Virus record (IMG/VR): IMGVR_UViG_3300013114_000098
From: a virus
Reading direction: 5' to 3' (one strand)
DNA: 64,000 bases
The translations under genes were made by a program, and so were the position numbers. Below are positions 5,350-42,226 of the stretch, piece after piece (position 1 is the stretch's first letter; the number at the start of each line of letters is the position of its first letter). The notes beneath the pieces were generated by a model. It worked only from the letters and a program-made list of their open reading frames with translations. It was not told the origin of the DNA and did no database searches.

Positions 5350-5949
5350 TTATGCTACGCTAGGTCCATAAACAGAAAGAATAGACCAGCCTGCACTTGT
5401 ATAAATCATCTCTACACTTTGACCAGCTGTTGTGAACGCTACAGTACTGAAACCGTTCGCTGTACTAGGAGTTACAACAACTGTACCGGCTGGTGTCGCT
5501 GTAGTAACTATAACTTTTCTCTCACCCTCTATACCGTTTGATAGTGATAGTGCTAAATCTGTACTTGCGTCTACGTATACTGTGCCTCTAGTATCTAGTG
5601 AAACAGAATTTGTAGCTGACTTTGTTAATATTACTATTTTTTGTAAATACCCAACATTCCATGGATTAGTGTTACTACCTATATTATATTGTATGCCTGA
5701 GTCTATATTAGGTATAACATCGCTACTGATATTGGCATTTAATGTTAAGGAACCGCCTCCGTTACCTAGTGATATAACATCTCCGTTTACAACAAGGGTG
5801 CCTCCGATATACATATTACCGGCCGCATACGTTCCACCTTTATTATAAAGAGATGCACCTACTGGATCAACAGGAGATACGCCAACATCCAATGTGTTGG
5901 TGCTTTCTATAACTAATGTTCCAGAATCTGGATTAATGTGTGATGACAT
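5350..5949 (-). CDS. Small virion structural protein
   Basis: 199 aa, beta-rich, downstream of late promoters, first gene of the fibre operon. Confidence 0.6.
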   Translation of the reverse strand: MSSHINPDSGTLVIESTNTLDVGVSPVDPVGASLYNKGGTYAAGNMYIGGTLVVNGDVISLGNGGGSLTLNANISSDVIPNIDSGIQYNIGSNTNPWNVGYLQKIVILTKSATNSVSLDTRGTVYVDASTDLALSLSNGIEGERKVIVTTATPAGTVVVTPSTANGFSTVAFTTAGQSVEMIYTSAGWSILSVYGPSVA

Positions 5950-5972
5950 AATACTTTTTTCCTACTACTTCC

Positions 5973-6000
5973 TATTTATATAATTATATATGTATTTATC
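5973..6000 (-). promoter_or_regulatory. T4-type late promoter(s): TATAAATA 5973-5980 and GATAAATA 5993-6000
   Basis: Match to T4 gp55 late consensus TATAAATA upstream of structural operon. Confidence 0.7.
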
Positions 6001-6029
6001 AAAGGTAAGATGTTTTGAACTGTCATAAG

Positions 6030-6061
6030 AAAAGACACATTAAATTAATAATGCGTCTTTT
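6030..6061 (-). terminator. Intrinsic terminator ending the ncRNA unit
   Basis: AAAAGACGCATTA-loop-TAATGTGTCTTTT followed by CTT on minus strand. Confidence 0.65.
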
Positions 6062-6071
6062 CCGTTAATAA

Positions 6072-6257
6072 GTTAAATAGGTAGGACTTGGTTACACCTA
6101 CAAGCCGGAAACACAGATACCATTCTATAATTCCAGCAACCTAACCCCGCCAGTGACTGCGATGTGACTCCCTCTGTTTTCCAGATAAAGCCTGGGTACC
6201 ACCCCTGGTTAGTCAAGTTAGAGCCTCTGGTAAGACCCTCTTCCTTGCACTATTAAC
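6072..6257 (-). ncRNA. ~186-nt structured non-coding RNA (family unassigned)
   Basis: GC-richer island; ends pair (GUUAAUAG/CUAUUUAAC); helices AACUUGAC/GUUAGGUU, CCAG/CUGG, GGGU/ACCC, GCUGGAA/UUCCGGC, GUAGG/CCUAC; G-U pairs only on minus strand; own promoter and terminator. Confidence 0.8.
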
Positions 6258-6291
6258 AAAAAGTAATTAGTTTTTTGTTACTTATGTGTTT

Positions 6292-6320
6292 AATATATAA
6301 CAGTTTTGCCTAAAGGTCAA
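6292..6320 (-). promoter_or_regulatory. Host sigma70 promoter for the ncRNA
   Basis: TTGACC-17 bp-TATATT with A-rich UP element. Confidence 0.75.
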
Positions 6321-6357
6321 CCTTTTTTTTAATCTTTTTTTAATTTTATCCACAGCC

Positions 6358-6389
6358 AAAAAAATAGGCCCATTTCTGAGCCTATTTTT
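6358..6389 (-). terminator. Intrinsic terminator after major capsid gene
   Basis: AAAAATAGGCTC-AGAAAT-GGGCCTATTTTTTT. Confidence 0.85.
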
Positions 6390-6417
6390 ATGTAAAAAAT
6401 TGTATTCTAGTAAAATA

Positions 6418-7587
6418 TTACTGGAATGACAAGTTACTTGCGTTAACATCAATTTTAGAAACGTAGTCCGCCGCATTACCAAGAGATGAAGCCTGGTTAT
6501 TTAGCTCAACATAGCCATAACGTGTCATAAATGATACTGTTGGCTCGAATGTTGCCGGATCTAATACTGTGCCTGAAGACATTAGTGGAATGTATGGGCA
6601 ATAAAATGCTGCCGCATCAATTTCACCGTCGCCTTTATAGCCAACTAGTACTGGAGCATTATCTGCCGCGTACTGGTCAACAAAAACACGCATAGTGCCA
6701 TTCAAAGTACCTACAAATTTAGTATTTGTTGGAGCTTCAAAAGGTCCTTCAGTTGTTCTTGCGAACGCTGAAGTTGTTGCACTTTGTAGTACTGTTAACA
6801 TAGTTGGTGAAACAACGACATAGTTACCTGCACCACGACGTGTTCTTGCCGCGATTAGGTTAGCTGATCTGTTTATAAGAACTGCTAGTGCCGCATGTTG
6901 GTCTCCAACGAAAGTTGCTGTACCTGATACTGAACCTTGGTCATATGTATCAGTTGCCGCGCCTGCTAATGTACGTAGTGAACCGATCACTTCTTGATCA
7001 ATCTCAGCAGTAATTTCTTGGGCAAGTGCCTGCATAATTTCTGCTTCAACGTCTAGACCGTGCATTGCGTTTGCGTCTTGAGCCGCTTCAAACGTCCAAC
7101 GAGCACTCAATTTACGAGTTTTCGCTTCAACTGTTTGCTTCAATACTTGGATAGAAAGTTTCTTTCCAGCTTCTGCTTCTAAAGAAGAAGTTGAAGTTGC
7201 TGCGCCTGCTGATGCGTTTGCATCACCTGAGTATCCTTTTGCAATTGCAAATGGAGATAAAGCTTCATCACCTGCTGAAACGCCTGATGCTGTTTCGCCA
7301 TATCTTACTCTAAGTGTATGTATTTGTCCTACTGGACCTGTCATAGGCTGTACGCCTACAAGTTCGTTTGCGATAACTGTTGGCATCACACGTCTGATAA
7401 CTGGAAGAATCACTTTGTTAAGTGATGCAACGTTACCCGCCATAGTTGTGCCAGCTGTAGCTGATTCTGAAAGGTAGCTCTTAGTGTTTTCAAGAACTGA
7501 TTCCATTACAACCTTTTTGTTACCTTCTAAGCCATCTGTTAGGGCGTCTTTTGTAACGTCCCAATTTTCAAATAGATTCTGTGTCAT
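6418..7587 (-). CDS. gp23: Major capsid protein (T4 gp23-like)
   Basis: LVGVQPMTGPVG, VEAKTRKLSARWTFEAAQD, AFYCPYIPL, FMTRYG motifs. Confidence 0.97.
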   Translation of the reverse strand: MTQNLFENWDVTKDALTDGLEGNKKVVMESVLENTKSYLSESATAGTTMAGNVASLNKVILPVIRRVMPTVIANELVGVQPMTGPVGQIHTLRVRYGETASGVSAGDEALSPFAIAKGYSGDANASAGAATSTSSLEAEAGKKLSIQVLKQTVEAKTRKLSARWTFEAAQDANAMHGLDVEAEIMQALAQEITAEIDQEVIGSLRTLAGAATDTYDQGSVSGTATFVGDQHAALAVLINRSANLIAARTRRGAGNYVVVSPTMLTVLQSATTSAFARTTEGPFEAPTNTKFVGTLNGTMRVFVDQYAADNAPVLVGYKGDGEIDAAAFYCPYIPLMSSGTVLDPATFEPTVSFMTRYGYVELNNQASSLGNAADYVSKIDVNASNLSFQ

Positions 7588-7599
7588 TTGGAATTCTCC

Positions 7600-8700
7600 T
7601 TAGTTGATTCCTGCTAACTTTTTAAGGTTAATAATTTCGGCTTCACTATCCGTGTTTGCTGGAGTGTTAGCCTTGTTACCGGTAATCTCAGTCTTCTGAG
7701 ATTCTGTTAGTGTTTTTTGTGAATCTTTGTTTGTGCCTGACTCATTAAGTACCGTTGGTAGGTATTTGTTGAATTGGGCTTTTAACTTGCTTGTAGCTAT
7801 GCTTTCAAGTAAGTTGTTCATTAATTCACGTTTATCTTTGGCCAAAGGAGACATAAGTTCAGTTATAACTGCCTCACGCTCACGGCTTTCATTAATTCTA
7901 GCAACTTCATTTGTTGCTTCAGTAATTTTTGCCTCTTTAGCTTCAATTTCTTTTTGCGATTCTTCAATTTGAGTCTTCGCATCTGAAAGTTCTTTTGAAA
8001 GTTTTGAAATATGTGTTCCCTCAGCGATATGCGAACCCATAAACTCAGCCGCAAAAGTTTCGAACAGTTTACGTCCGAACATATTTTCTTTTGCCTGCTT
8101 AATATCTTCTTTTAACGTACCTAATTCTGTTGTAAGTGTCTTATCAACAATAGTAGCTAGTTTTGTAGAAGCCTTGTCTATGAAGTCAGTTTTTGCTTTG
8201 GTAATCATTTCTTTACCTTCTGCAACAAGTTTTACCTTTTGTTCAATAAGGTCTTTCTTGTCTTTATGGAATTCATTAAGTTCTGAAGTAAGTTGTTCCA
8301 TCACAAAGTCTTCTAACTTCTCAAAATTGCTTTCTTGAAGTTTTCTGTCGTTGCGTAGTTCGCCAATTTCCTTTTTAAGTGTTTCCATAACAAACTTATC
8401 AAGGAGCTCAGCATGTTCTGCGATTTTACGTTTATACTCAACTTGAGATTCAACTGCCGCTTTTTTATCTGCTGCAAATTCTGCTAATTCAGTTTTAATT
8501 GTATCTGATACCATTGCATCTAGTGCTTCCACCATTTGCGTTTTGTCAGTTTCATATCTGTTAGCGAATTCTTCACGTAATTCGGCAGTGATCTCTTCAC
8601 GAGCTTCACTTAATCTTGCTTCCCATGCTTCTGAAAGTGTTGAACGCACTTCCTCAGATAGGACTTCTGAACTTAGGAGTTGTTCTATTGCATTTGCCAT
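7600..8700 (-). CDS. gp22: Prohead core scaffold protein (gp22-like)
   Basis: Coiled-coil E/K-rich 366 aa between protease and MCP. Confidence 0.88.
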   Translation of the reverse strand: MANAIEQLLSSEVLSEEVRSTLSEAWEARLSEAREEITAELREEFANRYETDKTQMVEALDAMVSDTIKTELAEFAADKKAAVESQVEYKRKIAEHAELLDKFVMETLKKEIGELRNDRKLQESNFEKLEDFVMEQLTSELNEFHKDKKDLIEQKVKLVAEGKEMITKAKTDFIDKASTKLATIVDKTLTTELGTLKEDIKQAKENMFGRKLFETFAAEFMGSHIAEGTHISKLSKELSDAKTQIEESQKEIEAKEAKITEATNEVARINESREREAVITELMSPLAKDKRELMNNLLESIATSKLKAQFNKYLPTVLNESGTNKDSQKTLTESQKTEITGNKANTPANTDSEAEIINLKKLAGIN

Positions 8701-9330
8701 TTAGCTTCTCCTAATATCTAGTTTTTCAATGAACTTTAATACTTCCTTCTGGAGGTATTGATTTGCTATTGTGTCGTCTTTTACTGCGGATGCAACGTCA
8801 AGTAAGATGTTACCACGTTTACCATTCATAATTTGTTCATATAAAGGGTCTGGGTAAGCATCTGGTGCACTTGGATTAGCAACAAGATCAACTGTTTGAA
8901 TTTCAAACTCGCTAACATTGCCGCTTTCTGTTACATTTCCACTACCTCTTGACGAAACGCCAAGTTTTACTCCATTCTCTATAAGGGTTTTACAAATATT
9001 TCCCATTGGAGTAGGTAACAGTTTTAATCGACCATAACCGTCTTGACCGTCCATCCACATTTTTTCAATCATGTGACTAACACGGTCTAAATTAACTTGC
9101 AAATCATCTGGATGATCTGCCTCGCCTAAAACCGAATATCCAGTTTCAATTTTTTCTTGTATTGCTTTAACAGCTTTTGAAATTTCATTAACTGGGTAAA
9201 CTCTTGAGTTTTGATTACGAGTATTTCCTTGTACAAAGATACCTTGCATAAAAAGGCTTTTACCGTCCTGAGCTGTCTCAGTTATGATTTTAGCCTGATC
9301 ATATGTTAGGTTCTCTTTAAGTGTAAGCAT
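8701..9330 (-). CDS. gp21: Prohead protease (gp21-like)
   Basis: NxRVYP, GEADHP, LGVSSRGSG, DLVANPSAPDA motifs. Confidence 0.95.
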   Translation of the reverse strand: MLTLKENLTYDQAKIITETAQDGKSLFMQGIFVQGNTRNQNSRVYPVNEISKAVKAIQEKIETGYSVLGEADHPDDLQVNLDRVSHMIEKMWMDGQDGYGRLKLLPTPMGNICKTLIENGVKLGVSSRGSGNVTESGNVSEFEIQTVDLVANPSAPDAYPDPLYEQIMNGKRGNILLDVASAVKDDTIANQYLQKEVLKFIEKLDIRRS

Positions 9331-10369: not shown

Positions 10370-10567
10370 TTATTCTTTATCTTGGCTAGTGCCATACTGT
10401 AATTGCACGTCTTCTATCTTATCTGCATGTTCAGATCGTGTCATTTCACGTCTATTTCGCATTTTATTTAAATGTTTTAACGTCAACTTAGGTCTACGAG
10501 TATCATCTTCGTCCCATTTATTGAAGTTATCATCTTTTGCGTTTTGTGCTAATTCATTAAATCGCAT
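10370..10567 (-). CDS. Small head-associated hypothetical protein (65 aa)
   Basis: Probable start MRFNELAQ at 10567 overlapping portal stop; DTRRPKLTLKHLNKMR segment. Confidence 0.65.
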   Translation of the reverse strand: MRFNELAQNAKDDNFNKWDEDDTRRPKLTLKHLNKMRNRREMTRSEHADKIEDVQLQYGTSQDKE

Positions 10568-12227
10568 CGTCTGGTACTCCTGTATCTCCACCAGCATCTG
10601 GTACTTCTGCACCGCCAGTGTCTCCTAAGTCGGATTCGGGTTCTGCATTTTCTGCGTCGACATCAGTAGGTTGGAAACTATCTACGTCTGAGCCTCGTAA
10701 TCCCATTCCACCCAAGTCACCGGTTGCTGAGCCCGATGGTTTATTACCTGCTTGGTTTTCTTCTTTCCACATTCTTTCATTCTCAACCATTTCTTCTTCG
10801 TTAAGTCCTAAGTATCTTGCAAGTATAAATCTTCTTGATAGATAAGGAACACCTTCAATAGAACTGAATAGATTTGCTTTTTGTGCATCAATTTCAATTG
10901 TTCTATATTGTGAGAAACTTTGTGGTTCAGTAAATGATAAATCAAATAAACTAGCACTAATATCTAGTCCTCTGTGTTTACAAAATAATTTAAACTCATG
11001 GTCTAATGCTTGTTGTAGTGTTAGTTGTAATCTTTCACAATACTTCGCAAAACGGAATTCTTGAATCATTGCTGTACCTATACGTCCGTCATTAAACGCC
11101 GCTATACCGTCTTCACTTCCAGTAGGAAGGTACGATGTTGGTACACGAAGTCCACGCATTAACTTGTTATTAAAGTATTTTAAATCATCAATCTCACCAA
11201 GGTTTTCACCACCCGGTAAAACTTCAACTTTAGATCCACGTCCTTCTGCTGTTTGTGCAAAGAAATAATCTTCCATTATTGATAACGGATTATAAGCCGC
11301 ATCAACAACTTTAGTACCACCACCACTCATATTTGGAATACGTGTTTGGTGTACCTCGTTTTTAACTCTTTCAACAAAGCCCATTGCTTTGTGTGCTGGC
11401 ATATTACCTACGTCAATATAGAACACACGTCTTTCAGGTGCTCTTTGTACACGATAGATAATAATACTATCTTCTAATAATTCTTTTTGTTTATAAACTT
11501 TAAATACAGGTTCTAAAATACTATCACCAAATGGCCAGTTACTATTCATTCCATCTGATAAACTAACATGTACTACATGCGTAGAGTCTACTGCAAATTC
11601 TGAATTCATACCTGATGAGTTTGGTGTTACAATACCTGCATTTCCTTTTCCTACTGTATAACCTGTTGTAGGATTAACTGCTGTAGCATCTTGATGTTTT
11701 TTAGTATCTGTTGCTACTAACTCTTGTAAGTTAAGTGCAATATTTTTAATAACGTATTGATCAATTCTTCTGCCTTCGCTTTCATTGACAATTGTTTTTA
11801 CTACATCACCGGATTGTACCGCAATAAGTTTATATGTTTCTGGATCTCTAATAAAAAATTGATCTCCATATTTAATGCAAGATCTAAACATAGAAAAAAT
11901 TCTACGTTCAAAGTTATTAATGTTAACCCATTGTTTTAATGTAGTTTCTAATGCAGTTACTTCTGAATCAGTTGGATTTGTTTTATATTGAATTTCAAAT
12001 GGTATATTAGATTCTGGATGTAATTGTGTACTAAATTCTGCAATTGTATCAAGTGCCGCATTAATTTCACTGTCTTGATCCATTTGATCATATTGTGTGT
12101 AACGTTCAATACGGTTTGGTTGGCCCGAGTATACCTCTGGTAGCCAACTCTGCCAACGGCTGGTATTCGCTGATCCGCTTGTTCCATCCATTGGATTATA
12201 TCTTGTAAAGTGTTTTTTCCAACTCAT
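10557..12227 (-). CDS. gp20: Portal protein (gp20-like)
   Basis: IYRVQRAPERRVFYIDVGNMP, EDYFF, LPGGENLGEIDDLKYF motifs. Confidence 0.97.
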   Translation of the reverse strand: MSWKKHFTRYNPMDGTSGSANTSRWQSWLPEVYSGQPNRIERYTQYDQMDQDSEINAALDTIAEFSTQLHPESNIPFEIQYKTNPTDSEVTALETTLKQWVNINNFERRIFSMFRSCIKYGDQFFIRDPETYKLIAVQSGDVVKTIVNESEGRRIDQYVIKNIALNLQELVATDTKKHQDATAVNPTTGYTVGKGNAGIVTPNSSGMNSEFAVDSTHVVHVSLSDGMNSNWPFGDSILEPVFKVYKQKELLEDSIIIYRVQRAPERRVFYIDVGNMPAHKAMGFVERVKNEVHQTRIPNMSGGGTKVVDAAYNPLSIMEDYFFAQTAEGRGSKVEVLPGGENLGEIDDLKYFNNKLMRGLRVPTSYLPTGSEDGIAAFNDGRIGTAMIQEFRFAKYCERLQLTLQQALDHEFKLFCKHRGLDISASLFDLSFTEPQSFSQYRTIEIDAQKANLFSSIEGVPYLSRRFILARYLGLNEEEMVENERMWKEENQAGNKPSGSATGDLGGMGLRGSDVDSFQPTDVDAENAEPESDLGDTGGAEVPDAGGDTGVPDDAI

Positions 12228-17942: not shown

Positions 17943-18418
17943 AATGACTACTTGACAAGATGCTTTATTCACACTTAGCCTTATACAGGCCAAGTGTAAA
18001 TTGTTCTTGACATAGAACTCTACCCACAGATACTATAGTAAACCTAGTTTAGCACCTAGGAAGGGCGGTTACGCGGTACCCTTATTACATACTGCTTTAT
18101 AACGCAGAAACACCCATTGCCATAGTATCAACTTTGGGTTGTCCTCAAGTTCCAAATTGTCAGGAGAGCTTGATCATTTTGATTTGTCAAATCAGTGCAT
18201 TGACTTATAGGCACACCAGTTCTGGTCACAATGAAGTAACCTCAAGGTGAGTCGAGCGAATCTCGACCAATCAGGGCCTTGTAGCCTATGTTAGTTTTTA
18301 TTAGCCTAAAATTGTATTTGAGTTGGAGCCGGACTTTAAGTCTGTATGAGTTTTGGTTTTACACTATTAGTTATCTTATGCTTTAATTATTAGCTGATAA
18401 TAAAGTTAAAACGCTACT
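17943..18418 (-). ncRNA. Long structured non-coding RNA (~480 nt) or RNA-primed origin region
   Basis: 630-bp ORF-free gap with about ten hairpins and long-range helices; G-U pairs favour minus strand; sigma70 promoter directly upstream. Confidence 0.7.
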
Positions 18419-18424
18419 TTTGTT

Positions 18425-18453
18425 ATAATAACAAAAATTTAATACGTTGTCAA
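18425..18453 (-). promoter_or_regulatory. Host sigma70 promoter overlapping GIY-YIG stop codon
   Basis: TTGACA-17 bp-TATTAT with extended TGn; -10 lies within a 9-1-9 palindrome. Confidence 0.75.
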
Positions 18454-18896
18454 CCTTTCTTTAAGTGTTCCGTAAGAATTTTTGAACTACCCACCCTTAC
18501 GTTAATAATGCCGTTATAGTATTCATCGGTTTCTAATACTCTACGGTCAAATTGTTCTTTTGCTTCCATGTAACTTAATACACCTTTACTAGGACAATAA
18601 TGTAAAATTTCTCTAGTAAATTTATTTGAACCAAGTGTTAGGACATCTGCGTTTAAATGATCTGATGACCCCCAATAGTCTTGCCAATCACTTTCTTTAT
18701 ATCCACGTCTTTTATTCTTTTTACCTTTAAGTGGTGGCTTAGTTGTTTTAAATCTTGCTAGTTTTTTACCTATGTATTTTTTATTGTTAGTAAGATTTGT
18801 AATTACATATACAAATCCTTCGCAATCATTAGGTAATTCATTGACTATTTTATTTTTATATGTCCATGGACAATTATTCTTCTTTGACCCATTCAT
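18450..18896 (-). CDS. Stand-alone GIY-YIG endonuclease-like protein (Seg-like)
   Basis: GFVYVITN...KKYIG, YWGSS, FTREIL, E...YYN motifs; catalytic domain only, basic insertion. Confidence 0.85.
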   Translation of the reverse strand: MNGSKKNNCPWTYKNKIVNELPNDCEGFVYVITNLTNNKKYIGKKLARFKTTKPPLKGKKNKRRGYKESDWQDYWGSSDHLNADVLTLGSNKFTREILHYCPSKGVLSYMEAKEQFDRRVLETDEYYNGIINVRVGSSKILTEHLKKG

Positions 18897-31831: not shown

Positions 31832-34800
31832 ATGGCTAAGAAACGATCAGGACAGCAAACGGTCAATAATGTAAAATCTAGTAACTTCTTACCTACTGTT
31901 TTTCAAACAGAACTTAATAAAAGTTGGTTAGATAGTACACTTGATCAAATGGTTTCTAAAGGACCACTTGAGAATATAGATGGTTACATTGGAAGTAGAA
32001 ACGGAAAAGTATCATTAGCAAGTGACGACTACTTAGAAACAAAAGAAACTAAAAGCCAATTAAAACCTGCAGTCGTTTCATATAATAAACAAAAAGAATT
32101 AACTAATGCAATTACATTTGATGATATTGCAAATTCTATTAATACAAACTTTAGCACATATAACTATAATGCGGCATATGCTTCAGACAGATATAGTTTT
32201 AATCCGCCAATTAATATTGATAAGTTTGTTAACTATACCAACTATCGTTGGGTAGAAGAATTACCTGTATACGAAAGTATATGGACAGGTTCAGCTAAAA
32301 ATCCAATAACAGATATACAAACTAACGGCAAGTCACAACTAGTAGATGATAACAATACATTTACAGTTGAGAACAATATGCTTATTAAGTTTACTGGTTC
32401 TGGATGGAACGCAAGTGTTTTAAACAAAACATATATAGTAGCAGGCTCGGCAGGTAAACATAAATTATACGAATATATAGATGAGAACGGTGTTAGAGTA
32501 TATAACAACACAGTAAAACATTCAGAAAACAATGATGGTGTGTGGCATAACAATGTATTATTTAATGCAGAATTAAATACAAACTACAATGGATATAATG
32601 CTGGCACTGTTGAGTCACCAGAGCAATTAGTAACACACTACAATAATACTAATCCAAGATTACCATTTTTTGATGGGTTTAACTTCCCACAACTAACATC
32701 TAATCCTACACAACTTATTAGTGATATGCTTGTAAAATTTACAGGCAGTTGGGTACACAGTGGTATAACAAATAGTACTGATATATTTTCAATAACAATT
32801 AATGCTACTACTGGTGATATAGCAATAACAGCGGCAACAGCTGCCCAAATAATATCTGCAAATGAAACATTATCACCTGACAATAATTTAATGTATGATG
32901 AAGGCAATGCAGTAACCCCACAAAAAGATTATATTGTTATTACAAAAGATGACCCATTTCAAACTGCATGGAGTAGAGCTAACCATTGGGTTAATATTAG
33001 TACAATTAATAAACTAGTTGACCTGATACCTACTTACGATTTTACTGAAATTAAAAATATTAAAAGAAAAGCACAAAGGCCTATCATAGAATATAATGCT
33101 GGTATAAACTTATGGAACCAAGCAGAACACACAGGCGTTCAATACTTAGGAGCAGTACACGGATTAGCACAAGCAGACGCTAAGCCAACTACAGTAGGTG
33201 ACAAGTATCTTTACATTGATAATAGTGATTACAAACTTTATACAGTTGCATCAGGAACAGATACTTCAGTAGATTTAACAGACAATGATACGTTCTCTAT
33301 TAAATCTACTTTACATACTTCATGGGTAGAAGCAGATGGTTATTGTATTGATGGTACAATTACACTAGCACAACAAAAAACAAAAATCAATCAATATCCT
33401 TTATATAAATTTTATAACATGGAAGGTGAATCATTAGAAGGTGGATGTGGTAAGTCATTTACAGGTGATAAGATTTTTGGTTACAAAGTAGGAACAGGTA
33501 CAAACGATACAGAGCTAGGATTTCCATTAAGTTTTAAAGATACACCAAAGGGTGCTGAATATGAATTTGAAAACTTTATTTTAACTAACAAGTATTATAC
33601 TAATCACTCAAACGCAGAATACTCAAAAGCAACTTATTCAAAAGATCAAATAGGATACAATTTATTTAAGCAGAACAATGTACTAAAAACTATATATACA
33701 CCAGCTGGCAATATAGCAGGTGCATTTGAAAATGCACAATATAAAATAGAAGCAATAGATGCACCATTAACAATCCCATATGGATATAATAACTGGAGAC
33801 CAACATCAACATATTTAATTCATAATATAGACAACGATGTTTCTATTACTATTGCTCATGACAATGGAACTACTCACACAACACGCACAGGTAATGCAGA
33901 ACTATATACAGTAGGTGAAAACCAAACAGTTGTATTTGAGAATTTAACAGGATTAGCATTAACAGTTGTTTCATATGGTGTAGATATTGAATCAACATCT
34001 ATACCAGAAATTTCATTTGCAAGGTCAGGACAAAAAATAACTTTAGTAACAAGTGCATCTAGTAACAATACTCATTTTGATATTGTTGCAGGCGGAACAA
34101 CAGTATTACAATCATTTATTGTAACTCAACAATGGGATAATTCATTTTACAAACTTACAGTAAACGGTAACAACATAGAACCAGCAAAAGTAACTATAGG
34201 TGCAACAACTGTTACAATAGACGAAAGTGCATTTGCAATTAATGACTTAGTTGACTTTAGTTGGCGAAATAATGACTTAGCAAATAAAACAACTAATATA
34301 AGTTTACCAGATGTACATATCCATAACGCAAACAACACAGCTATTGAAACATTTACAATGAGCGAAACTATTAACCACTGGACAGATAAACTAAATGCAA
34401 TGCCAGGGTTCGATGGCAATATGCTTGGTGATAATAATTTTGCTAGTATACCTCATACAACACACCACGGTGGCACAATCTTTATGCATGAGAATATTAG
34501 TGCAATGCATGATATTAATTATTCTAATAACAATTTAACAATTACAGGAGCATTAGTTGAGCAAGGAAAAGAGTTTGATGCATTTAGAACAAGAGTAGGT
34601 GCCCAAGCAAGACGATTATATACATTAGGTACTACAACTATACAAGCATTAACAGATAGTGCAATAACTGAAATTCTTAGAAACAAACAAAAAAGTAAAT
34701 TATACAACACGTCTAATATGCTTTATACAGATTTAATTAATAAACATGAATTTGATTTAGAAGATGCAGACCCGGCAAACTTTACTAAAACATTTAAAAC

Positions 34801-37800
34801 AAGATTTACATTTAACGGTGATACTAATATTAGAGATCACGTATACGTTTACTTAACAGAAAACAATGGTAGCAACGTACAAGTAAGAAAACTTCTTTTA
34901 AAAGATAGAGATTATACATTTCTAAGTGATACAGTTACATTAAATGTTACTTATGCCGCATTAGACACTGCTAAGACAGCTCCTAAAGTAGAAGTTTATC
35001 ATATTAAAATGGACGAGGAATCTTATGTTCCACCTAGTATGGTTAAACTTGGATTAGCATATGGTGTTGAACCGCAAGTACATGGAAACATTTTATACAC
35101 ACATGATGGTAAACAAATAGATGTAACGGGCAAAGATATTGAAAACATTGGAGCAGGTGCAACGTTTGATCCTGTTAATGCAGTAATATTTGAAATGGAA
35201 AAACGTATATATGCTGGACTAGTTAAAGAAGATGCTATGTACAATGATGAGAGTGAAGGAGTAGATAGATTTAATTCTCCAGTAGAATACATACCAACTG
35301 AACATGTAGGTACATGGTTTAAATTAAATGATTTAAATAATTACGTAGAAAAACATTATTACAAGTGGGCAAGACTTAATAAAATTACAAGCCTAAACAC
35401 AGCTAATTATTATGATGCCGCAGATCCATTTACATGGAATTATAGCACCATAACAATTAGTGGACACTTTACAGGCAATACATTACCAGGACATTGGAAG
35501 GGTGCGTACACACACTTATTTGGAACATGCACACCACACATTACTCCGTGGCATATGTTAGGTTACGCATTTAAGCCAACTTGGTGGGATGCAAATTATA
35601 GTTGGACAGATGCAACTAAACGTACAGCATTATTAAATGCATTGAGTAAAGGTATTATTTCAAATCCAAGTAGCAATACAACACAAGTAATAAGAAATGC
35701 AAGACACTCTTGGGATTTTACAACTAAGTGTCCAGTTAAAGCAGATGGCACACTGGAAGATCCTAGCACAGTATTAGGCATGCCAGCAAATATTGATAAA
35801 GAAAAAGAATTTGTATTTGGTGATTGGGGACCTGTAGAAGCACAATGGAGACTAAGTGCATTTGGTCAATCTATGATGCTAGACGCAGTATTAAAATTAA
35901 ATCCTGCAAAAGCATGGACAGACTTTTTTCAACCTGGTGTTATTGGCAAACATAACGCAATTATAAGAAATACAAATCATTATAATAAATTATTGCCTGC
36001 AACAGGTGATTATAAAATTCCAGGAAAAATATATGAGAACAGCATTGAGAGTTTAACACTTAATAGTAACTCATCAAACACATTAGAAAAAACAGGATAT
36101 TTTAATATATTAGATGATAGCAAAAGTACTATTGCTAGAGCAAGATATAGACTTACTGTACCAAGTGCAAGTACAGGAACAGCAGAAGTTCTTAGTTTAA
36201 TAGAACGTGGGCTAGACTTTACTGGGCAACCAATTGTTTCATATGTTGGATCTGATTCAGTACTAAATCCTATAGATGTTGCAATAAAACTTAAACAAGT
36301 TCCATTTACAGCAAATGGAATAGCACAAGCACAATACAACTATATAATTAGAAATAGCATTGACGTTAGTTTAGAAGACTTATATAAAAATTTAACAACT
36401 AAATTACAAGCAAAACTAAACGGTTTTACTAGTAAACATTTAATAAATGTATCTGCAGAAACTAGTGTAGTGGGTGACTTTGAATTAGGAATTGCTGATT
36501 TTAATGTTAGCATGTATGAAGGTTCTGTTACAGAACTAGTTACAGCAAGTTTATTAGTTATTACAAAAACACTTACTGGTTATAAAGTAGCAGGTATTAA
36601 TAATAACACTAGAGAGTTTAAATTTTATGAACCGAACTTAGTAAGCCCAACAGATTATACAACACAAACTATTGCTGGGCAAACAGTAAGACGATATAAT
36701 AAATTTGTTACAACACCAAGTATTGTTGAGTATGATGCAGAATTTGAAAAACTACAAGACATGTATAATTTTATACGAGGCTATTGGAATTGGATGGAAA
36801 CAAGCGGGTATACACCTGCTTACGATGGTGACAGCTCTGCTAGTGATTTTGTTACATGGGCATTACGTGCAGAAGTTAATAACGGATATATTTTACAAAT
36901 AGGTAGAGAAATTAAATTTAAACCAACAAGTGGTCATGTATATGAGTATAACCAATTAGAATATAATAGCAATGATATTTTATTAACGGATTCTACTAGA
37001 ATAGAAAATAGCAAGTTAGGTATTAAACGTGCTGATGGAACAACTTCAATTGAAACAAAAAATAAAGAATTTATAGGAAGTGTTACCAGTGCTGTTTTAG
37101 ATTACGAACATATTATTATATTTGAAAACAAAACAGCATTAGGAGTAAATATTTTTGATGACGTTAAAAATAATAGTCAAGAACGACTTCGATTAAAAGG
37201 ACAAAGAACACAAAATTGGACAGGTGAAAAGAAAGCACCTGGTTACTTAGTATTTAATGATAGCATTGTACAAAACTTTGACAGTGCAGTACAAAGCATT
37301 GATGATATGTACAGAACAGATGTAGATCATTTTAATGAGTCATTTTCAAAAGCAAAAGATTTAACAATAGGAAATGTAGAAGGACTGTTATTAGATAATT
37401 TAGGTATTAATAAAAACGTACTAACAAACTATCATCAAGGTATGATAAAAGAAAAAGGTACAAAGGGTGCAGTAGAACATATAGGTAAAAGTGATATACT
37501 ACATAATAGTGAAACAAAAGTTTCCGCATACGAACAATATATGTTTAGGCAATCACATTTAGGTAATGACGATTTTGATAATGCACTTGAAATAGAAATA
37601 GTTTCGAGCGATGTTAATTCATCACCTCAAGTAATAACCCTTGATAAAACATCTACAGATTCTAATGTAATTGTAGCAACTAGTGATAAAATTGTTAATG
37701 ATAAATCTATTACATTTGATACATTAAGTTATGAAGATTCAAATTCTGACATACTTACAGGAGGCGAGGCTCTAGCTACTGAAACAAAATATAGAGTATT

Positions 37801-40800
37801 AAATTCAACTAAATTAAGTTCTGTATTTGACAGTACTGCTGATTATGCAATAATTCCTACATGGAGCCCTATAGTTAGTTATAAAAAAGGTGATCAAGTA
37901 CGTTTCAGAGGTGAGTTGTGGAAATGTAATACAAACTTTACTGGCTTAGATGTAGTAGCACCAGCTATAGAAGTAACAACACCATTAGCAACAGATCAAC
38001 AAATACTTACATACGGAACAGTAGCAAACATTGCTGGAACAACAGTTACTATTGAGAAAACAAATCTAGCATATAATGATATTGTTGCTACAGGTTCATC
38101 TTTTACTCCATTCTTAGAAAGCGAAACTCTTAGTATCGCAGGTGAAACAATTACATTTAATAAACAAGAAAGTATACCTACAGTAATAGGACCAGCAGTT
38201 ATACTTGGTGAAGCAGGACCTGTTTCATTTACTGATGTAACTGGCAAGAGCATTACTATTAATATTAGACATGGTACAAATGGTGATAGTAATACAGTAA
38301 TTGATTTTGATACAACACCAGCAAACGTAGTTGAAAACTTTACAGGCGATGGAACTACAACACAATTTACAATAGCACAAACAATGTCGGGTGCTACTTA
38401 CATGGTAGACAGTATAACAGTTAACGGTGTAACACAAAATGTAACAACAGACTATACACAAAATTTGCAAATTATTACTTTTGTAAATGCACCAGCAAAT
38501 AGTGCCGCTATTGTTATAACATTAGTACACACGCCACACCAGATGAGTTCAACACAAATTAGAGATCGTATTAATTCTTATGGTATAGCAAACTTAACAG
38601 CATCACTTGAAACAGCAGGCACTATTGAAGTATTACAATTAAGTTATCAAGATACTGATGTAGAAAATGAATTAGTCTTGGAAGCGGGTTCAACTAATAA
38701 CGATTTAGGATTCATTACAAGTCCAATAAATCAACAGATAGTTAAAGCACAACCACAACAAGGAGTACTTACTCCAACTAATTTAACTGTAGAAGAAGTT
38801 AGAGATCAGATTAATAATACATCTGTTCTTCCAACAAATATAACAGCAACAGTCGCTAGTGGTAATATTGTATTAACAGATACAACAGGATCAACCCCAT
38901 TATTAATATCTGGAACAGCAAGAACAAAATTAGGTTTAGATGCAAGTTATCCAGTAAGTACATATTCAGCTAATCGCTCAGCAACATATTCAGAAGCAGT
39001 AGCAGATATACAAGCGGCTCTTACAGCGGCAAGTATAACAGATGTTAGTATTGTTGTAATTGGAAACGCAATTAAAATAACATCAACTGCGGCAAGTTTA
39101 ACTTTAGGTGATACTACTTTTAATAGCCAAACAGGATTACAAACAGGAACTATATATGCGGCAGAAGGTAATATTGATAATATATGGGACAGCGATCATG
39201 CATCTTACTTTGATGCAATAACTGCCGACCCAGCATTATATAACATACTAGTAGCAGACGATAGTGATTTTGAAATTACTTCTTCTGGTGCAGTACAAAC
39301 AAAGTTCTGGGGATGGAATGTTCTTCAAGTAACACAAAGACGACAAGATGTTTCAGGAGTACTTACTACTACACCATTATATAGTTTACCAAGTGCGGCT
39401 AAAAATGCGGCTTCATCAAATCCTACTACATGTGGTATATGTGCAGGTACTTCAAGTAAAGATGGTAATGATGCTGAAATAACAACTAACCTTCCACACG
39501 GATTACAAGTAGGTGATTGGGTACAATTATTAAACACAGATACTACACCAAACATAGATGGAATACACAAAGTAACAAAAGTAGATGCAAACGACAATCA
39601 AATATTTTATATAGACGAGTACATTGAACATTGTGGTAATGCAGTATCAATTATGCCATTAGTAACTACTAGATTTACAAACATAGATCAAAGAGACGGA
39701 GATGGTACTGTAACATATAATAATATAACAGGTGCAGAGAGTCTTGCACGTTGGAATATTCCAACTGATGCATATACTTTCCTTAGTTATGTAGATGCAG
39801 TTAGAGGAACATATGTATACAAAAAAGGTACAACACTTGCTACTAGAATTAATAAAACAAGGCCTACTAATAAAGATATAGACAGTGTAGTAATTTATAA
39901 TCATAAAGAAAATAAATCAAAAGTGCAATTAGAAGTATGGGATCCAATGAGAAAGATTATTCCTGGTATAGCTCAACAAAATTTAGATTATATTAATTTC
40001 TCTGACAATGCAATTTATACCACATCAACTGATACTAATCATCTTGTAGACTTAGATAATGCATGGGGTGAAGAACAAATAGGAACTAGATGGTGGGATA
40101 TAAGTAAAGCAAGATACTATGATTACGACCAAGGCGGGTCGGTTAATAAGACAGCCGCTTGGGGATACTTATACCCAGGAGCAGAAATTGTTGTTTGGGA
40201 ATGGATTAAATCAAGTGTAGCACCAGATGATTATGCTGATGCAGTAACTAATTTAACAGAAATGTTTGGAACAATAGCAACTGGTGAAGCATACTCTGTT
40301 TACGATAATGTTGCAAAAGAAACATTATATTACTATACAACAGAAAAAGAATATAATAGACAAACAGGATCTTATAATGATGTATATTATTATTGGGTTA
40401 AAGATAAAACAACAATGTCAGATACAAGAACATTATCAGCATATGATGTTGCTAGTATGATTGAAAATCCAACAGCAAGTGGTGTTAGTTGGTTTGCAGT
40501 TATAAGCGAAAACGAAATTATCATTGATAATATTAATTATTATATAGAAGATAAAAATACTGTATTACAAATTAATAAAGCAGGTAATAAATTTAACTCA
40601 CATAACGAATGGATGCTTATTGCAAAAGATTCAGATTTAATTCCAGAGTATTATATAAATGCTATGAAACGTAATTTTGCTGGTAGAGATGGTAGTAAAA
40701 CACCATTGCCATATTCAACATTACATAAGTTTAATAGATACGGTGATGATATGACTATTGGTCAAACATGGTTTAATAATTTATCGGATGCCAGAAGAAA

Positions 40801-42226
40801 TGCTATAGTAACACTTAATACTCAATTGAAAAATATTAATCTAAATGATGAATTTGAACATACATGGGATAGAACATTTATAACTAATAACTTTCCTACA
40901 TTGTTATGGAATTGGGTAGACTATGAATTAAAATCATATACAGGAACACTTAATCATACAACAACAATTACAATATATTCAGATTTAGATACTATAGATA
41001 AAGATTATCATTCAGTAGCTAAATTAAATATATTTGATAACACTGATCAACTTGACAGAAGTGAGATATACGCATACAACGAATCAACTAGTAAGTGGGA
41101 GTTAGTATTTAAAAAGAATAATACAATTAAATTTGATGAGGCACTATTATCCGCAGTAGGTGGATGGGATAGAAATGTATGGGATTCTACACCGTGGGAT
41201 TTTGCAGACATTGCTGAATATTGGGAAACATTACTAGATGCATTAAACAACGATATATTTGTTCATTATAATAAACATCAAATGAATACTTTCTTCTTTA
41301 GTGTTATTCACTATGTATTAAGTTCAATGGAACAAACAACTTGGGTTAGAAAAACAACATATATTAGATTAGAATTTGCTGACGCAATTAATACAACTAC
41401 TAAAAAATATACAAAGAGTAAAATTAATAATGTAATAGGATACGTACAAGAAGTTAAACCTTTCCATACTAAGTCAAGTACAGTACTTACAAAACATACT
41501 AACTTAGATGAAGTTGGCCTTACAATAACAGAGGATCCAAAAACAAATATAACTATTAAGCCACAAGCATATGATGGTGTATTTGGTGGCAACACATATG
41601 CAGGTGCATCGGATTGGGGCACAACATATGATGATTACATTACAGGTGAAGGTACAAATATATACAGTGGCCCTGACTTTATAGCTCCTGAGTTATTCAA
41701 CTATACAGTTGATGGGCATAACAGAAATAGTTTAGTAGAAATTAGCCCACTTGAATTATTAAGAATTAACGTACAAACAAATGCTTCAGGTAGTACACAT
41801 GCAACTACTTCAAGAACATTTGCACACGTACAAGATAATAATGGATATGTAAATGCATATTCATTAACAGAAGCAAAAGAAACAACATTAACAGCCGCAC
41901 TAGATTTAGATGACACAACTATAAGTGTAGCAAGTACAACAGCATTTGATAGTGTTGGTATTGCTTATATAGGCGGCGAGCTAATAGAATACGTTGTAGC
42001 AGATGCTACAACATTAGGAATTACAAAACGTGAGATTGCTGGAACATTTAGTGTTATAGCAAGTATAGGAGACTCAATAATAAATGTAACTAACTCAAAA
42101 CTTACATTTGCTAATGATGATCCAAGTCATTATCAGTATAACACGTTAAGTGATACAATTTTAAACAGCCCAGGCTCAACACAGGCACAAGAGTTGCAAT
42201 CATTAGGCAAGGGTGTAGAATTATAA
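31832..42226 (+). CDS. Giant baseplate wedge/structural protein (gp7 position), 3464 aa
   Basis: Follows gp6; PPINIDKFVNY, YVQEVKPFHTK, FTGDG repeat and CBM5/12-like WxxxxSYKKGDQV segment. Confidence 0.7.
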   Translation: MAKKRSGQQTVNNVKSSNFLPTVFQTELNKSWLDSTLDQMVSKGPLENIDGYIGSRNGKVSLASDDYLETKETKSQLKPAVVSYNKQKELTNAITFDDIANSINTNFSTYNYNAAYASDRYSFNPPINIDKFVNYTNYRWVEELPVYESIWTGSAKNPITDIQTNGKSQLVDDNNTFTVENNMLIKFTGSGWNASVLNKTYIVAGSAGKHKLYEYIDENGVRVYNNTVKHSENNDGVWHNNVLFNAELNTNYNGYNAGTVESPEQLVTHYNNTNPRLPFFDGFNFPQLTSNPTQLISDMLVKFTGSWVHSGITNSTDIFSITINATTGDIAITAATAAQIISANETLSPDNNLMYDEGNAVTPQKDYIVITKDDPFQTAWSRANHWVNISTINKLVDLIPTYDFTEIKNIKRKAQRPIIEYNAGINLWNQAEHTGVQYLGAVHGLAQADAKPTTVGDKYLYIDNSDYKLYTVASGTDTSVDLTDNDTFSIKSTLHTSWVEADGYCIDGTITLAQQKTKINQYPLYKFYNMEGESLEGGCGKSFTGDKIFGYKVGTGTNDTELGFPLSFKDTPKGAEYEFENFILTNKYYTNHSNAEYSKATYSKDQIGYNLFKQNNVLKTIYTPAGNIAGAFENAQYKIEAIDAPLTIPYGYNNWRPTSTYLIHNIDNDVSITIAHDNGTTHTTRTGNAELYTVGENQTVVFENLTGLALTVVSYGVDIESTSIPEISFARSGQKITLVTSASSNNTHFDIVAGGTTVLQSFIVTQQWDNSFYKLTVNGNNIEPAKVTIGATTVTIDESAFAINDLVDFSWRNNDLANKTTNISLPDVHIHNANNTAIETFTMSETINHWTDKLNAMPGFDGNMLGDNNFASIPHTTHHGGTIFMHENISAMHDINYSNNNLTITGALVEQGKEFDAFRTRVGAQARRLYTLGTTTIQALTDSAITEILRNKQKSKLYNTSNMLYTDLINKHEFDLEDADPANFTKTFKTRFTFNGDTNIRDHVYVYLTENNGSNVQVRKLLLKDRDYTFLSDTVTLNVTYAALDTAKTAPKVEVYHIKMDEESYVPPSMVKLGLAYGVEPQVHGNILYTHDGKQIDVTGKDIENIGAGATFDPVNAVIFEMEKRIYAGLVKEDAMYNDESEGVDRFNSPVEYIPTEHVGTWFKLNDLNNYVEKHYYKWARLNKITSLNTANYYDAADPFTWNYSTITISGHFTGNTLPGHWKGAYTHLFGTCTPHITPWHMLGYAFKPTWWDANYSWTDATKRTALLNALSKGIISNPSSNTTQVIRNARHSWDFTTKCPVKADGTLEDPSTVLGMPANIDKEKEFVFGDWGPVEAQWRLSAFGQSMMLDAVLKLNPAKAWTDFFQPGVIGKHNAIIRNTNHYNKLLPATGDYKIPGKIYENSIESLTLNSNSSNTLEKTGYFNILDDSKSTIARARYRLTVPSASTGTAEVLSLIERGLDFTGQPIVSYVGSDSVLNPIDVAIKLKQVPFTANGIAQAQYNYIIRNSIDVSLEDLYKNLTTKLQAKLNGFTSKHLINVSAETSVVGDFELGIADFNVSMYEGSVTELVTASLLVITKTLTGYKVAGINNNTREFKFYEPNLVSPTDYTTQTIAGQTVRRYNKFVTTPSIVEYDAEFEKLQDMYNFIRGYWNWMETSGYTPAYDGDSSASDFVTWALRAEVNNGYILQIGREIKFKPTSGHVYEYNQLEYNSNDILLTDSTRIENSKLGIKRADGTTSIETKNKEFIGSVTSAVLDYEHIIIFENKTALGVNIFDDVKNNSQERLRLKGQRTQNWTGEKKAPGYLVFNDSIVQNFDSAVQSIDDMYRTDVDHFNESFSKAKDLTIGNVEGLLLDNLGINKNVLTNYHQGMIKEKGTKGAVEHIGKSDILHNSETKVSAYEQYMFRQSHLGNDDFDNALEIEIVSSDVNSSPQVITLDKTSTDSNVIVATSDKIVNDKSITFDTLSYEDSNSDILTGGEALATETKYRVLNSTKLSSVFDSTADYAIIPTWSPIVSYKKGDQVRFRGELWKCNTNFTGLDVVAPAIEVTTPLATDQQILTYGTVANIAGTTVTIEKTNLAYNDIVATGSSFTPFLESETLSIAGETITFNKQESIPTVIGPAVILGEAGPVSFTDVTGKSITINIRHGTNGDSNTVIDFDTTPANVVENFTGDGTTTQFTIAQTMSGATYMVDSITVNGVTQNVTTDYTQNLQIITFVNAPANSAAIVITLVHTPHQMSSTQIRDRINSYGIANLTASLETAGTIEVLQLSYQDTDVENELVLEAGSTNNDLGFITSPINQQIVKAQPQQGVLTPTNLTVEEVRDQINNTSVLPTNITATVASGNIVLTDTTGSTPLLISGTARTKLGLDASYPVSTYSANRSATYSEAVADIQAALTAASITDVSIVVIGNAIKITSTAASLTLGDTTFNSQTGLQTGTIYAAEGNIDNIWDSDHASYFDAITADPALYNILVADDSDFEITSSGAVQTKFWGWNVLQVTQRRQDVSGVLTTTPLYSLPSAAKNAASSNPTTCGICAGTSSKDGNDAEITTNLPHGLQVGDWVQLLNTDTTPNIDGIHKVTKVDANDNQIFYIDEYIEHCGNAVSIMPLVTTRFTNIDQRDGDGTVTYNNITGAESLARWNIPTDAYTFLSYVDAVRGTYVYKKGTTLATRINKTRPTNKDIDSVVIYNHKENKSKVQLEVWDPMRKIIPGIAQQNLDYINFSDNAIYTTSTDTNHLVDLDNAWGEEQIGTRWWDISKARYYDYDQGGSVNKTAAWGYLYPGAEIVVWEWIKSSVAPDDYADAVTNLTEMFGTIATGEAYSVYDNVAKETLYYYTTEKEYNRQTGSYNDVYYYWVKDKTTMSDTRTLSAYDVASMIENPTASGVSWFAVISENEIIIDNINYYIEDKNTVLQINKAGNKFNSHNEWMLIAKDSDLIPEYYINAMKRNFAGRDGSKTPLPYSTLHKFNRYGDDMTIGQTWFNNLSDARRNAIVTLNTQLKNINLNDEFEHTWDRTFITNNFPTLLWNWVDYELKSYTGTLNHTTTITIYSDLDTIDKDYHSVAKLNIFDNTDQLDRSEIYAYNESTSKWELVFKKNNTIKFDEALLSAVGGWDRNVWDSTPWDFADIAEYWETLLDALNNDIFVHYNKHQMNTFFFSVIHYVLSSMEQTTWVRKTTYIRLEFADAINTTTKKYTKSKINNVIGYVQEVKPFHTKSSTVLTKHTNLDEVGLTITEDPKTNITIKPQAYDGVFGGNTYAGASDWGTTYDDYITGEGTNIYSGPDFIAPELFNYTVDGHNRNSLVEISPLELLRINVQTNASGSTHATTSRTFAHVQDNNGYVNAYSLTEAKETTLTAALDLDDTTISVASTTAFDSVGIAYIGGELIEYVVADATTLGITKREIAGTFSVIASIGDSIINVTNSKLTFANDDPSHYQYNTLSDTILNSPGSTQAQELQSLGKGVEL

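Follow-up and report, generated by a model that had tools for sequence, protein, structure and literature searches.

What does a compact structured RNA do when it lies, with a promoter and a terminator of its own, between the major capsid gene of a phage and the next late gene? The question arises from a 64,000-nt stretch of viral DNA (here called the window) whose source is an 82.7-kb IMG/VR virus record, IMGVR_UViG_3300013114_000098, estimated to be 23% complete. Public runs containing the stretch are marine or seawater metagenomes, and in DNA sequence its capsid gene has ∼67-69% identity with its counterparts in the jumbo phages Vibrio 2.275.O, Pseudomonas PA5oct, and Escherichia PBECO4. 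The source of the unit is an uncultured marine jumbo phage.

The RNA is a member of the manA family, an unexplained riboswitch candidate since 2010 for which RNA-only cages in vitro were reported in 2026. Earlier work had described both the family and the quaternary structure of its members, and the window adds a further member and no new kind of RNA. This locus and its ∼85 relatives supply biological context for the cages: among the marine jumbo phages of one large group, manA comes as an optional cassette that stands alone, with a strong promoter of host type and a terminator of its own.

Identity and fold of the RNA behind the capsid gene

The unit lies at the end of a head module, and its features are given here in the direction of transcription.

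10557-12227, minus strand: portal gene, head module
8701-9330, minus strand: prohead protease gene, head module
7600-8700, minus strand: gene for a scaffold-like protein, head module
6418-7587, minus strand: gene for the major capsid protein of 389 aa, which matches phrog_138 (major head protein, E 2e-101) and adjoins the cassette on its upstream side
6357-6389, minus strand: intrinsic terminator of the capsid gene, an AUAGGC...GCCUAU hairpin with a U-run, read from the sequence
6292-6320, minus strand: sigma70-type promoter, TTGACC-17-TATATT
6071-6277, minus strand: manA-family RNA with helices P1-P9 (Rfam RF01745)
6257-6277, minus strand: hairpin P1 of the RNA, 21 nt, with a 9-nt loop L1 that holds the palindrome UAAUUA (6269-6264), from the manA alignment
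∼6027-6062, minus strand: intrinsic terminator of the manA unit, a 15-bp hairpin followed by UUUUCUU
5992-6000, minus strand: GATAAATAC, late-promoter-like motif of the next gene, enriched in the window
5350-5949, minus strand: downstream open reading frame of 199 aa, outside the manA unit

Read on the minus strand from the 3' end of the capsid gene, the order is terminator, A-rich stretch, promoter, structured RNA, terminator, GATAAATAC, and the 199-aa gene. An equivalent GC-rich hairpin with a T-run stands 3' of the capsid gene in relatives. The 199-aa gene has no match in PHROG or Pfam.

A preliminary description of this DNA had noted that the size and phage context of the RNA recall manA, and comparison with Rfam bears out the resemblance. 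The RNA matches RF01745 over its full length (model positions 1-192 of 192) and scores 57.8 bits, above the gathering score of 55.2 (E 3.8e-12). It is the sole match over threshold in a scan of the whole window, and RF01745 has no match in 14 control genomes. Weak matches near 6332-6431 (STnc370 and others, E ∼0.7-0.9) fall in the capsid terminator region and were set aside as chance.

Relatives were gathered from two sources. One was a set of 80 viral contigs with genes for related capsid proteins (72-93% identity), in 17 of which the Rfam model detected manA beside the capsid gene. A covariance model, R1, built from these 17 capsid-linked loci, scores the manA of the window at 189.9 bits and finds manA in 22 of the 80 contigs. 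A conserved-motif scan of IMG/VR yielded at least 120 more contigs, and 96 stretches among the matches listed fit R1. The homologue set comprises 85 unique full-length manA sequences from the capsid relatives and the IMG/VR matches listed. Many relatives score under the Rfam cut-off (36-54 bits), and the manA of the window belongs to a divergent subfamily.

The fold is far more stable than chance. A 281-nt stretch around the element folds at -87.9 kcal/mol, compared with -63.5 ± 5.2 kcal/mol for shuffled sequences (z = -4.7; 0/200 shuffles as good as native). All manA helices are present in the alignment to the consensus: P1, P2, P3, the four-way junction P4-P7, P8, and P9. The preliminary description had recognized a structured RNA at 6072-6257, which is right as to the fold and too short at the 5' end; the 21-nt hairpin P1 (6277-6257) belongs to the RNA, and the conserved element therefore spans 6071-6277. 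Across 89 distinct aligned sequences, both partners vary in 46 of 55 base pairs. Co-variation scores 0.458 compared with 0.149 in shuffled alignments and at most 0.157 with slid partners, and 80.8% of cells are paired compared with 60.1% when shuffled; the alignment was fitted to the model and leans the model's way, but these margins are large. These compensatory changes across nine helices indicate selection on RNA structure. They also accord with the earlier view that the unit holds no credible ORF: no conserved ORF is found across the 85 homologues, in which the longest sense ORF has a median of 35 aa.

The window RNA shares with RF01745 the nine-helix architecture with a four-way junction, the AGUG junction, the GUGGU of L5, and the GGU...UCC of P9, and both are of marine phage origin. 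It differs in its longer P6 and in a 9-nt palindromic L1 that replaces the GACG tetraloop of the consensus. The settings differ as well: RF01745 is filed as a cis-regulatory 5'-UTR element, with T4-like cyanophage as its setting, whereas the window holds a closed unit behind a jumbo phage capsid gene, with the 6027-6062 terminator and the late motif at 5992-6000 standing before the next gene. As a 5'-UTR location is a contextual label and not a structural criterion, membership in manA stands.

The cassette and its slot in related phages

The promoter described earlier at 6292-6320 has 10 of 12 consensus matches, with the -35 element at 6320-6315 and the -10 element at 6297-6292. Transcription is predicted to start near 6285, which would give a primary transcript of ∼255-260 nt. 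That host RNA polymerase makes the RNA, as first proposed, agrees with the relatives: GGTTGAC-N17-19-TAnnnT stands directly 5' of manA in 73 of the 85 homologues, and most others carry TTGC or TTGA variants.

The terminator had been placed at 6030-6061, and both minimum-energy and centroid folds place a 15-bp hairpin there (∼6062-6030) with UUUUCUU behind it. Folding reveals this hairpin, which a simple scan for consensus terminators does not list at 6027-6062. A terminator-like hairpin with a T-run follows within ∼110 nt in 42 of 47 capsid-linked homologues, an approximate count that combines two detectors (one earlier detector gave 49/83, another fewer); these hairpins have 37 distinct 5' arms.

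Behind the terminator lies GATAAATAC, which occurs five times in the window compared with 1.1 expected. Other copies stand 25-69 nt upstream of the portal gene and of another gene start. Because the motif is enriched and precedes these genes, it is read as the probable late promoter of the phage. In most relatives, (G)ATAAATAC lies behind the manA terminator and before the next gene. The T4-type late promoter TATAAATA was considered as well; it occurs once in the window compared with ∼14 expected (100/100 shuffles have at least one copy) and is therefore not the late signal of this phage.

Among the 80 capsid relatives, the promoter-RNA-terminator unit occupies the slot behind the capsid gene in 22 and is otherwise absent. 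The three closest by capsid identity (L002-L004, 90-93%) are without it, and in L002, L004, L006, L008, and L012-L014 the slot is empty or otherwise filled. In the relatives that lack manA, the late motif and the next gene come right after the capsid terminator, or other cargo fills the slot. In L034 and L082 the whole unit is inverted and converges on the 3' end of the capsid gene, so that no gene follows it. In L031 and L120 a tRNA-Gly(UCC) starts at the first base after manA, before a common terminator, and in L168 (7737-9306) manA lies within an array of at least five same-strand tRNA genes. The genes downstream of the unit vary between loci. Of the first 17 loci, L083 alone has a homologue of the 199-aa gene behind the unit, and a similar gene lies directly behind the capsid terminator and late promoter in L006 and L008, which have no manA.

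Given its presence in 22 of 80 contigs, its inversion, its linkage to tRNA-Gly, and its absence in close relatives, the unit is an optional, self-contained cassette in a variable slot. It does not look like a leader of the next gene, because that gene varies, the unit can be inverted, a tRNA can follow it, and most capsid relatives are without it. The earlier picture of a stand-alone unit holds for the comparative context of capsid-linked loci and is not universal in the subfamily. Of 36 homologues that are not capsid-linked, 25 are without a terminator. Many stand 56-95 nt ahead of a gene for gp32, a single-strand-DNA-binding protein (PF08804, E 1e-43).

Among cultured phages, a blastn search with the unit finds only Pelagibacter phage Mosig (L217; MT647606.1), with manA at 108168-108399 (64 bits), and no isolated jumbo phage carries the unit at blastn sensitivity. 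The Mosig manA ends ∼27 nt before a rubrerythrin gene. Both the gp32-leader layout and that of Mosig fit a leader or cis role in those phages. The GenBank record of Mosig has no feature at the manA RNA and annotates a permuted tmRNA of the alpha-proteobacterial type ∼3 kb upstream of it.

Two studies have RNA libraries whose contigs span 6087-6270 and 6152-6270, the latter with adapter sequence at both ends; these are assembled contigs, which bear on coverage and not on transcript ends, strand, or level, and the libraries may contain DNA. They are separate from the contigs that cover the capsid gene and the 199-aa gene, a weak hint that manA RNA may occur as a separate molecule. The stretches 5958-6033 and 6338-6413 have no cover, and these gaps carry no weight as evidence.

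The cassette resembles a moron, an autonomous insertion of promoter, gene, and terminator between late genes of a phage. Like a moron, it has its own promoter and terminator, lies between two late structural genes, is present or absent among close relatives, and occupies a slot that elsewhere holds unrelated cargo. Moron cargo is a protein gene, whereas the cargo of this unit is a non-coding RNA. The phage is probably lytic, and the lysogenic-conversion logic of morons is therefore absent. The literature search found no description of manA in a stand-alone cassette.

Several smaller observations concern the slot and its surroundings. The slot behind the capsid terminator is hypervariable (L002, L003, and L004; others carry nothing). 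By eye, from its translated start, the gene in the slot of L004 resembles those of PstS-type phosphate-binding proteins and has its own sigma70-like promoter, while the slot of L002 holds a metallophosphoesterase-like gene, read in the same way. In many relatives, a freshwater-2 RNA (RF02980) directly follows the manA terminator and late motif (for example L089:1347-1430, minus strand, 66.1 bits), in the leader of a 117-153-aa gene starting with MGRP(I/L)NK; the window has neither this RNA nor this gene. In several T4-like contigs, a motif GGGT(T/A)G(T/C)TACTTAATAA ... GGGG..CACGGT(C/T)A..CCCC lies near manA, upstream of it in L135 and L176 and downstream in L161, L137, and L151. No Rfam family matches the motif over threshold in the scanned loci, and it could be a further small RNA or a hairpin with a regulatory role.

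Loop pairing and possible assembly

The loops that matter for pairing are the following.

6227-6232, minus strand: L3, UACCAG, complementary to L8, from co-variation
6197-6202, minus strand: L5, GUGGUA on a 3-bp P5, fitting the conserved GUGGUG of the Rfam consensus
6177-6181, minus strand: L6, GAAAA, capping the long P6, from the manA alignment
6152-6157, minus strand: L7, GUCACU, which pairs weakly with L5 as GUGGU/GUCAC, two of the pairs being G-U
6118-6123, minus strand: L8, AUGGUA, complementary to L9 (ACCA) and L3 (UACCA), from co-variation
6086-6096, minus strand: L9, UGUAACCAAGU, loop of the last hairpin P9, from the co-variation of P8 and L9

The loop motifs listed in the preliminary description are all there: UACCA at 6228-6232, GUGGUA at 6202-6197, AUGGUA at 6123-6118, AACCA in the last hairpin, and a loop containing GAAAA. 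From them two pairings had been proposed, AUGGUA with AACCA (L8-L9) and UACCA with GUGGUA (L3-L5). These were examined through duplex energies, in which loops of the same sequence were compared with loops re-dealt among the 85 sequences (5000 shuffles); re-dealing keeps phylogenetic relatedness in, and the weaker z values are to be read with caution. The interior of P8 co-varies with L9 (z = -6.5; 0/5000 shuffles reach the observed value), and the L8-L9 pairing is upheld. The L3-L5 pairing fails as a conserved contact (z = 0.1; 2649/5000). L3 co-varies with the interior of P8 (z = -9.2; 0/5000), and L5 does so with L7 (z = -2.7; 12/5000). Other loop combinations range from z = +1.0 to -2.5.

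The pairs keep their complementarity through varied sequences. L8-L9 occurs as UGGU/ACCA, AGGAU/AUCCU, AUGA/UCAU, GAGA/UCUC, CUGAU/AUCAG, and AAUGAUC/GAUCAUU, and L5-L7 as UGGUA/UACCG, UGU/ACA, UAU/AUA, and UGC/GCA. In a second subgroup, L3 has its partner at the 3' side of L8, where the partner coincides in part with the 3' strand of the inner stem of P8; this may reflect alternative pairings. L6 is a GNRA tetraloop (GAGA, GAAA, or GUGA) in 58 of the 85 homologues and GAAAA in 14.

L1 falls into two classes, either a GACG/GAUA tetraloop, as in Rfam, or a loop of 7-9 nt. Of 12 distinct long loops, 11 contain a Watson-Crick palindrome of at least 6 nt, compared with 2.5 in shuffles (0/5000 reach the observed number). 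The palindromes include UAAUUA (in the window), UAGCUA, UUAUAA, and AUUAAU. A loop cannot pair with itself inside one molecule. That L1 stays self-complementary while its sequence changes is therefore a signature of pairing between two copies. For L5-L7, L8-L9, and L3-L8, co-variation alone fits pairing between molecules and within one alike.

Structures of other family members bear on this choice. A July 2026 preprint describes cryo-EM of five manA RNAs, all pentamer-built, with assemblies that include pentamers, octamers, decamers, and one 60-subunit icosahedral cage; A0F1 forms the 60-mer, and 67AA, pho_A28C, and pho34_A767 form decamers (bioRxiv 10.64898/2026.07.01.735769). Molecules touch through L5-L7' in all classes and through L8-L9' or L3-L8' by class; the class with long P6 has a contact of the GNRA loop L6 with P6', and the 60-mer has L1-L1' (bioRxiv 10.64898/2026.07.01.735769). 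Assembly took place in vitro, at 10 mM Mg and ∼3 mg/ml RNA, and the preprint presents the oligomers without biological context or function (bioRxiv 10.64898/2026.07.01.735769). The loop-loop pseudoknots proposed in the preliminary description are, on this evidence, better read as contacts between molecules.

The contact loops seen by cryo-EM (L5-L7, L8-L9 or L3-L8, and L1) are mutually complementary in the window, weakly so for L5-L7, and co-vary in the subfamily. There are differences: the subfamily carries both the L8-L9 and the L3-L8 signals, whereas each solved class uses only one, and L6 of the window is GAAAA in place of the GNRA tetraloop. None of the solved RNAs is identical to that of the window. 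A free-standing cassette whose cage-contact loops co-vary, the self-complementary L1 included, argues that the RNA, and probably its assembly, is the selected product.

Other RNA-only assemblies offer a comparison. ROOL and GOLLD RNAs are ∼600-800 nt in size and are borne by phages or prophages, often near tRNA genes. Some manA units likewise lie near tRNA genes, although ROOL and GOLLD are much larger; neither has an Rfam match in the window. Both form RNA-only multimeric assemblies and serve as comparators in the supplement of the preprint, where their dihedral stacked rings differ from the pentamer-based cages of manA (bioRxiv 10.64898/2026.07.01.735769).

Explanations for the cassette

The explanation that fits best, and that is probably correct, is an autonomous, early-transcribed manA RNA that acts in trans and whose selected property includes self-assembly. 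The unit is an optional moron-like cassette in the variable slot that follows the gene for the major capsid protein. Early in infection, host RNA polymerase would begin transcription near 6285, from the strong sigma70-type promoter, and would stop at the intrinsic terminator near 6027 to release a free RNA of ∼255 nt. The transcript is expected to fold into the P1 hairpin, the closing helix P2, P3, the four-way junction P4-P5-P6-P7, P8, and P9. Copies would then pair with one another through L5-L7, through L8 with L9 and/or L3, and through the palindromic L1-L1, and the product may be a closed, pentamer-built homo-oligomer like those that cryo-EM found for other manA RNAs. Such a particle would act in trans and not as a switch for a neighbouring gene; the roles suggested in the preliminary description, as a decoy, an anti-defence RNA, or a ligand-binding RNA, are candidates. 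A wider proposition is improbable: that no manA RNA is a gene switch, and that all are early-expressed, self-assembling particles which phages make for their own sake, with the contacts between molecules under natural selection (L1 stays palindromic, and L5-L7, L8-L9, and L3-L8 co-vary). On that view the closed particle might, in the course of infection, tie up a host factor or a small-molecule signal in or on a cage with many binding sites.

A riboswitch or attenuator is an improbable alternative, in which manA would sense a metabolite or factor, control read-through at 6027-6062, and thereby allow conditional early expression of the 199-aa gene. The layout does follow the classic order of aptamer, terminator, and gene, and manA is filed as a cis-regulatory riboswitch candidate in 5' UTRs by both Rfam and Weinberg et al. 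(2010; PMC2864571). In many members of the subfamily, moreover, no terminator separates the RNA from gp32 or another gene immediately behind it. A weak signal for an antiterminator comes from the 5' arm of the terminator, which is slightly more complementary to the last 60 nt at the 3' end of manA than expected (cognate -6.79 compared with -6.21 kcal/mol shuffled, z = -2.5), a value inside the range of unrelated loop controls. Against such coupling, the terminator is separate from the conserved fold and overlaps neither P2 nor P9, and its stems vary freely while the 3' end of manA is conserved. The inverted unit of L034 has no gene to control, and in L031 and L120 a tRNA intervenes between manA and the terminator. 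The next gene differs from locus to locus and is preceded by a promoter motif of its own, the literature searched reports no manA ligand since 2010, and the palindromic L1 has no role in a switch.

Another reading, unlikely in our judgement, keeps the action in trans and assigns it to a monomer or an RNA-protein complex, which might serve as a decoy or sponge that occupies a nuclease or an RNA-binding protein of the host. The loops would form intramolecular pseudoknots, and oligomerization would be an in-vitro by-product. The evidence for autonomy serves this reading equally well, as does the loop co-variation, which is equally compatible with pairing inside one molecule; a possible pseudoknot was in fact drawn in manA by Weinberg et al. 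(2010; PMC2864571). However, cryo-EM places L5-L7, L8-L9, and L3-L8 between different molecules (bioRxiv 10.64898/2026.07.01.735769), L1 co-varies yet stays palindromic, which points to the pairing of two copies, and no protein partner is known.

That the element serves RNA processing or stability, or that it is a signal in the DNA without an RNA function, such as a palindromic operator past the promoter, is very improbable. The TAATTA palindrome ∼16-21 nt past the predicted start could in principle bind a dimeric protein, and some members are mRNA leaders, but the compensatory changes across nine helices reflect selection on RNA structure, and most capsid-linked loci have the unit closed by a terminator of its own.

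Two further features of the window lie away from the cassette. An ORF-poor gap at 17950-18896, beside a small GIY-YIG nuclease gene, is a candidate for a large structured RNA; the surrounding 17700-19100 matches no Rfam family at E up to 0.1. Within a block of plus-strand genes, 31832-42226 (plus strand) forms a single open reading frame of 3464 aa.
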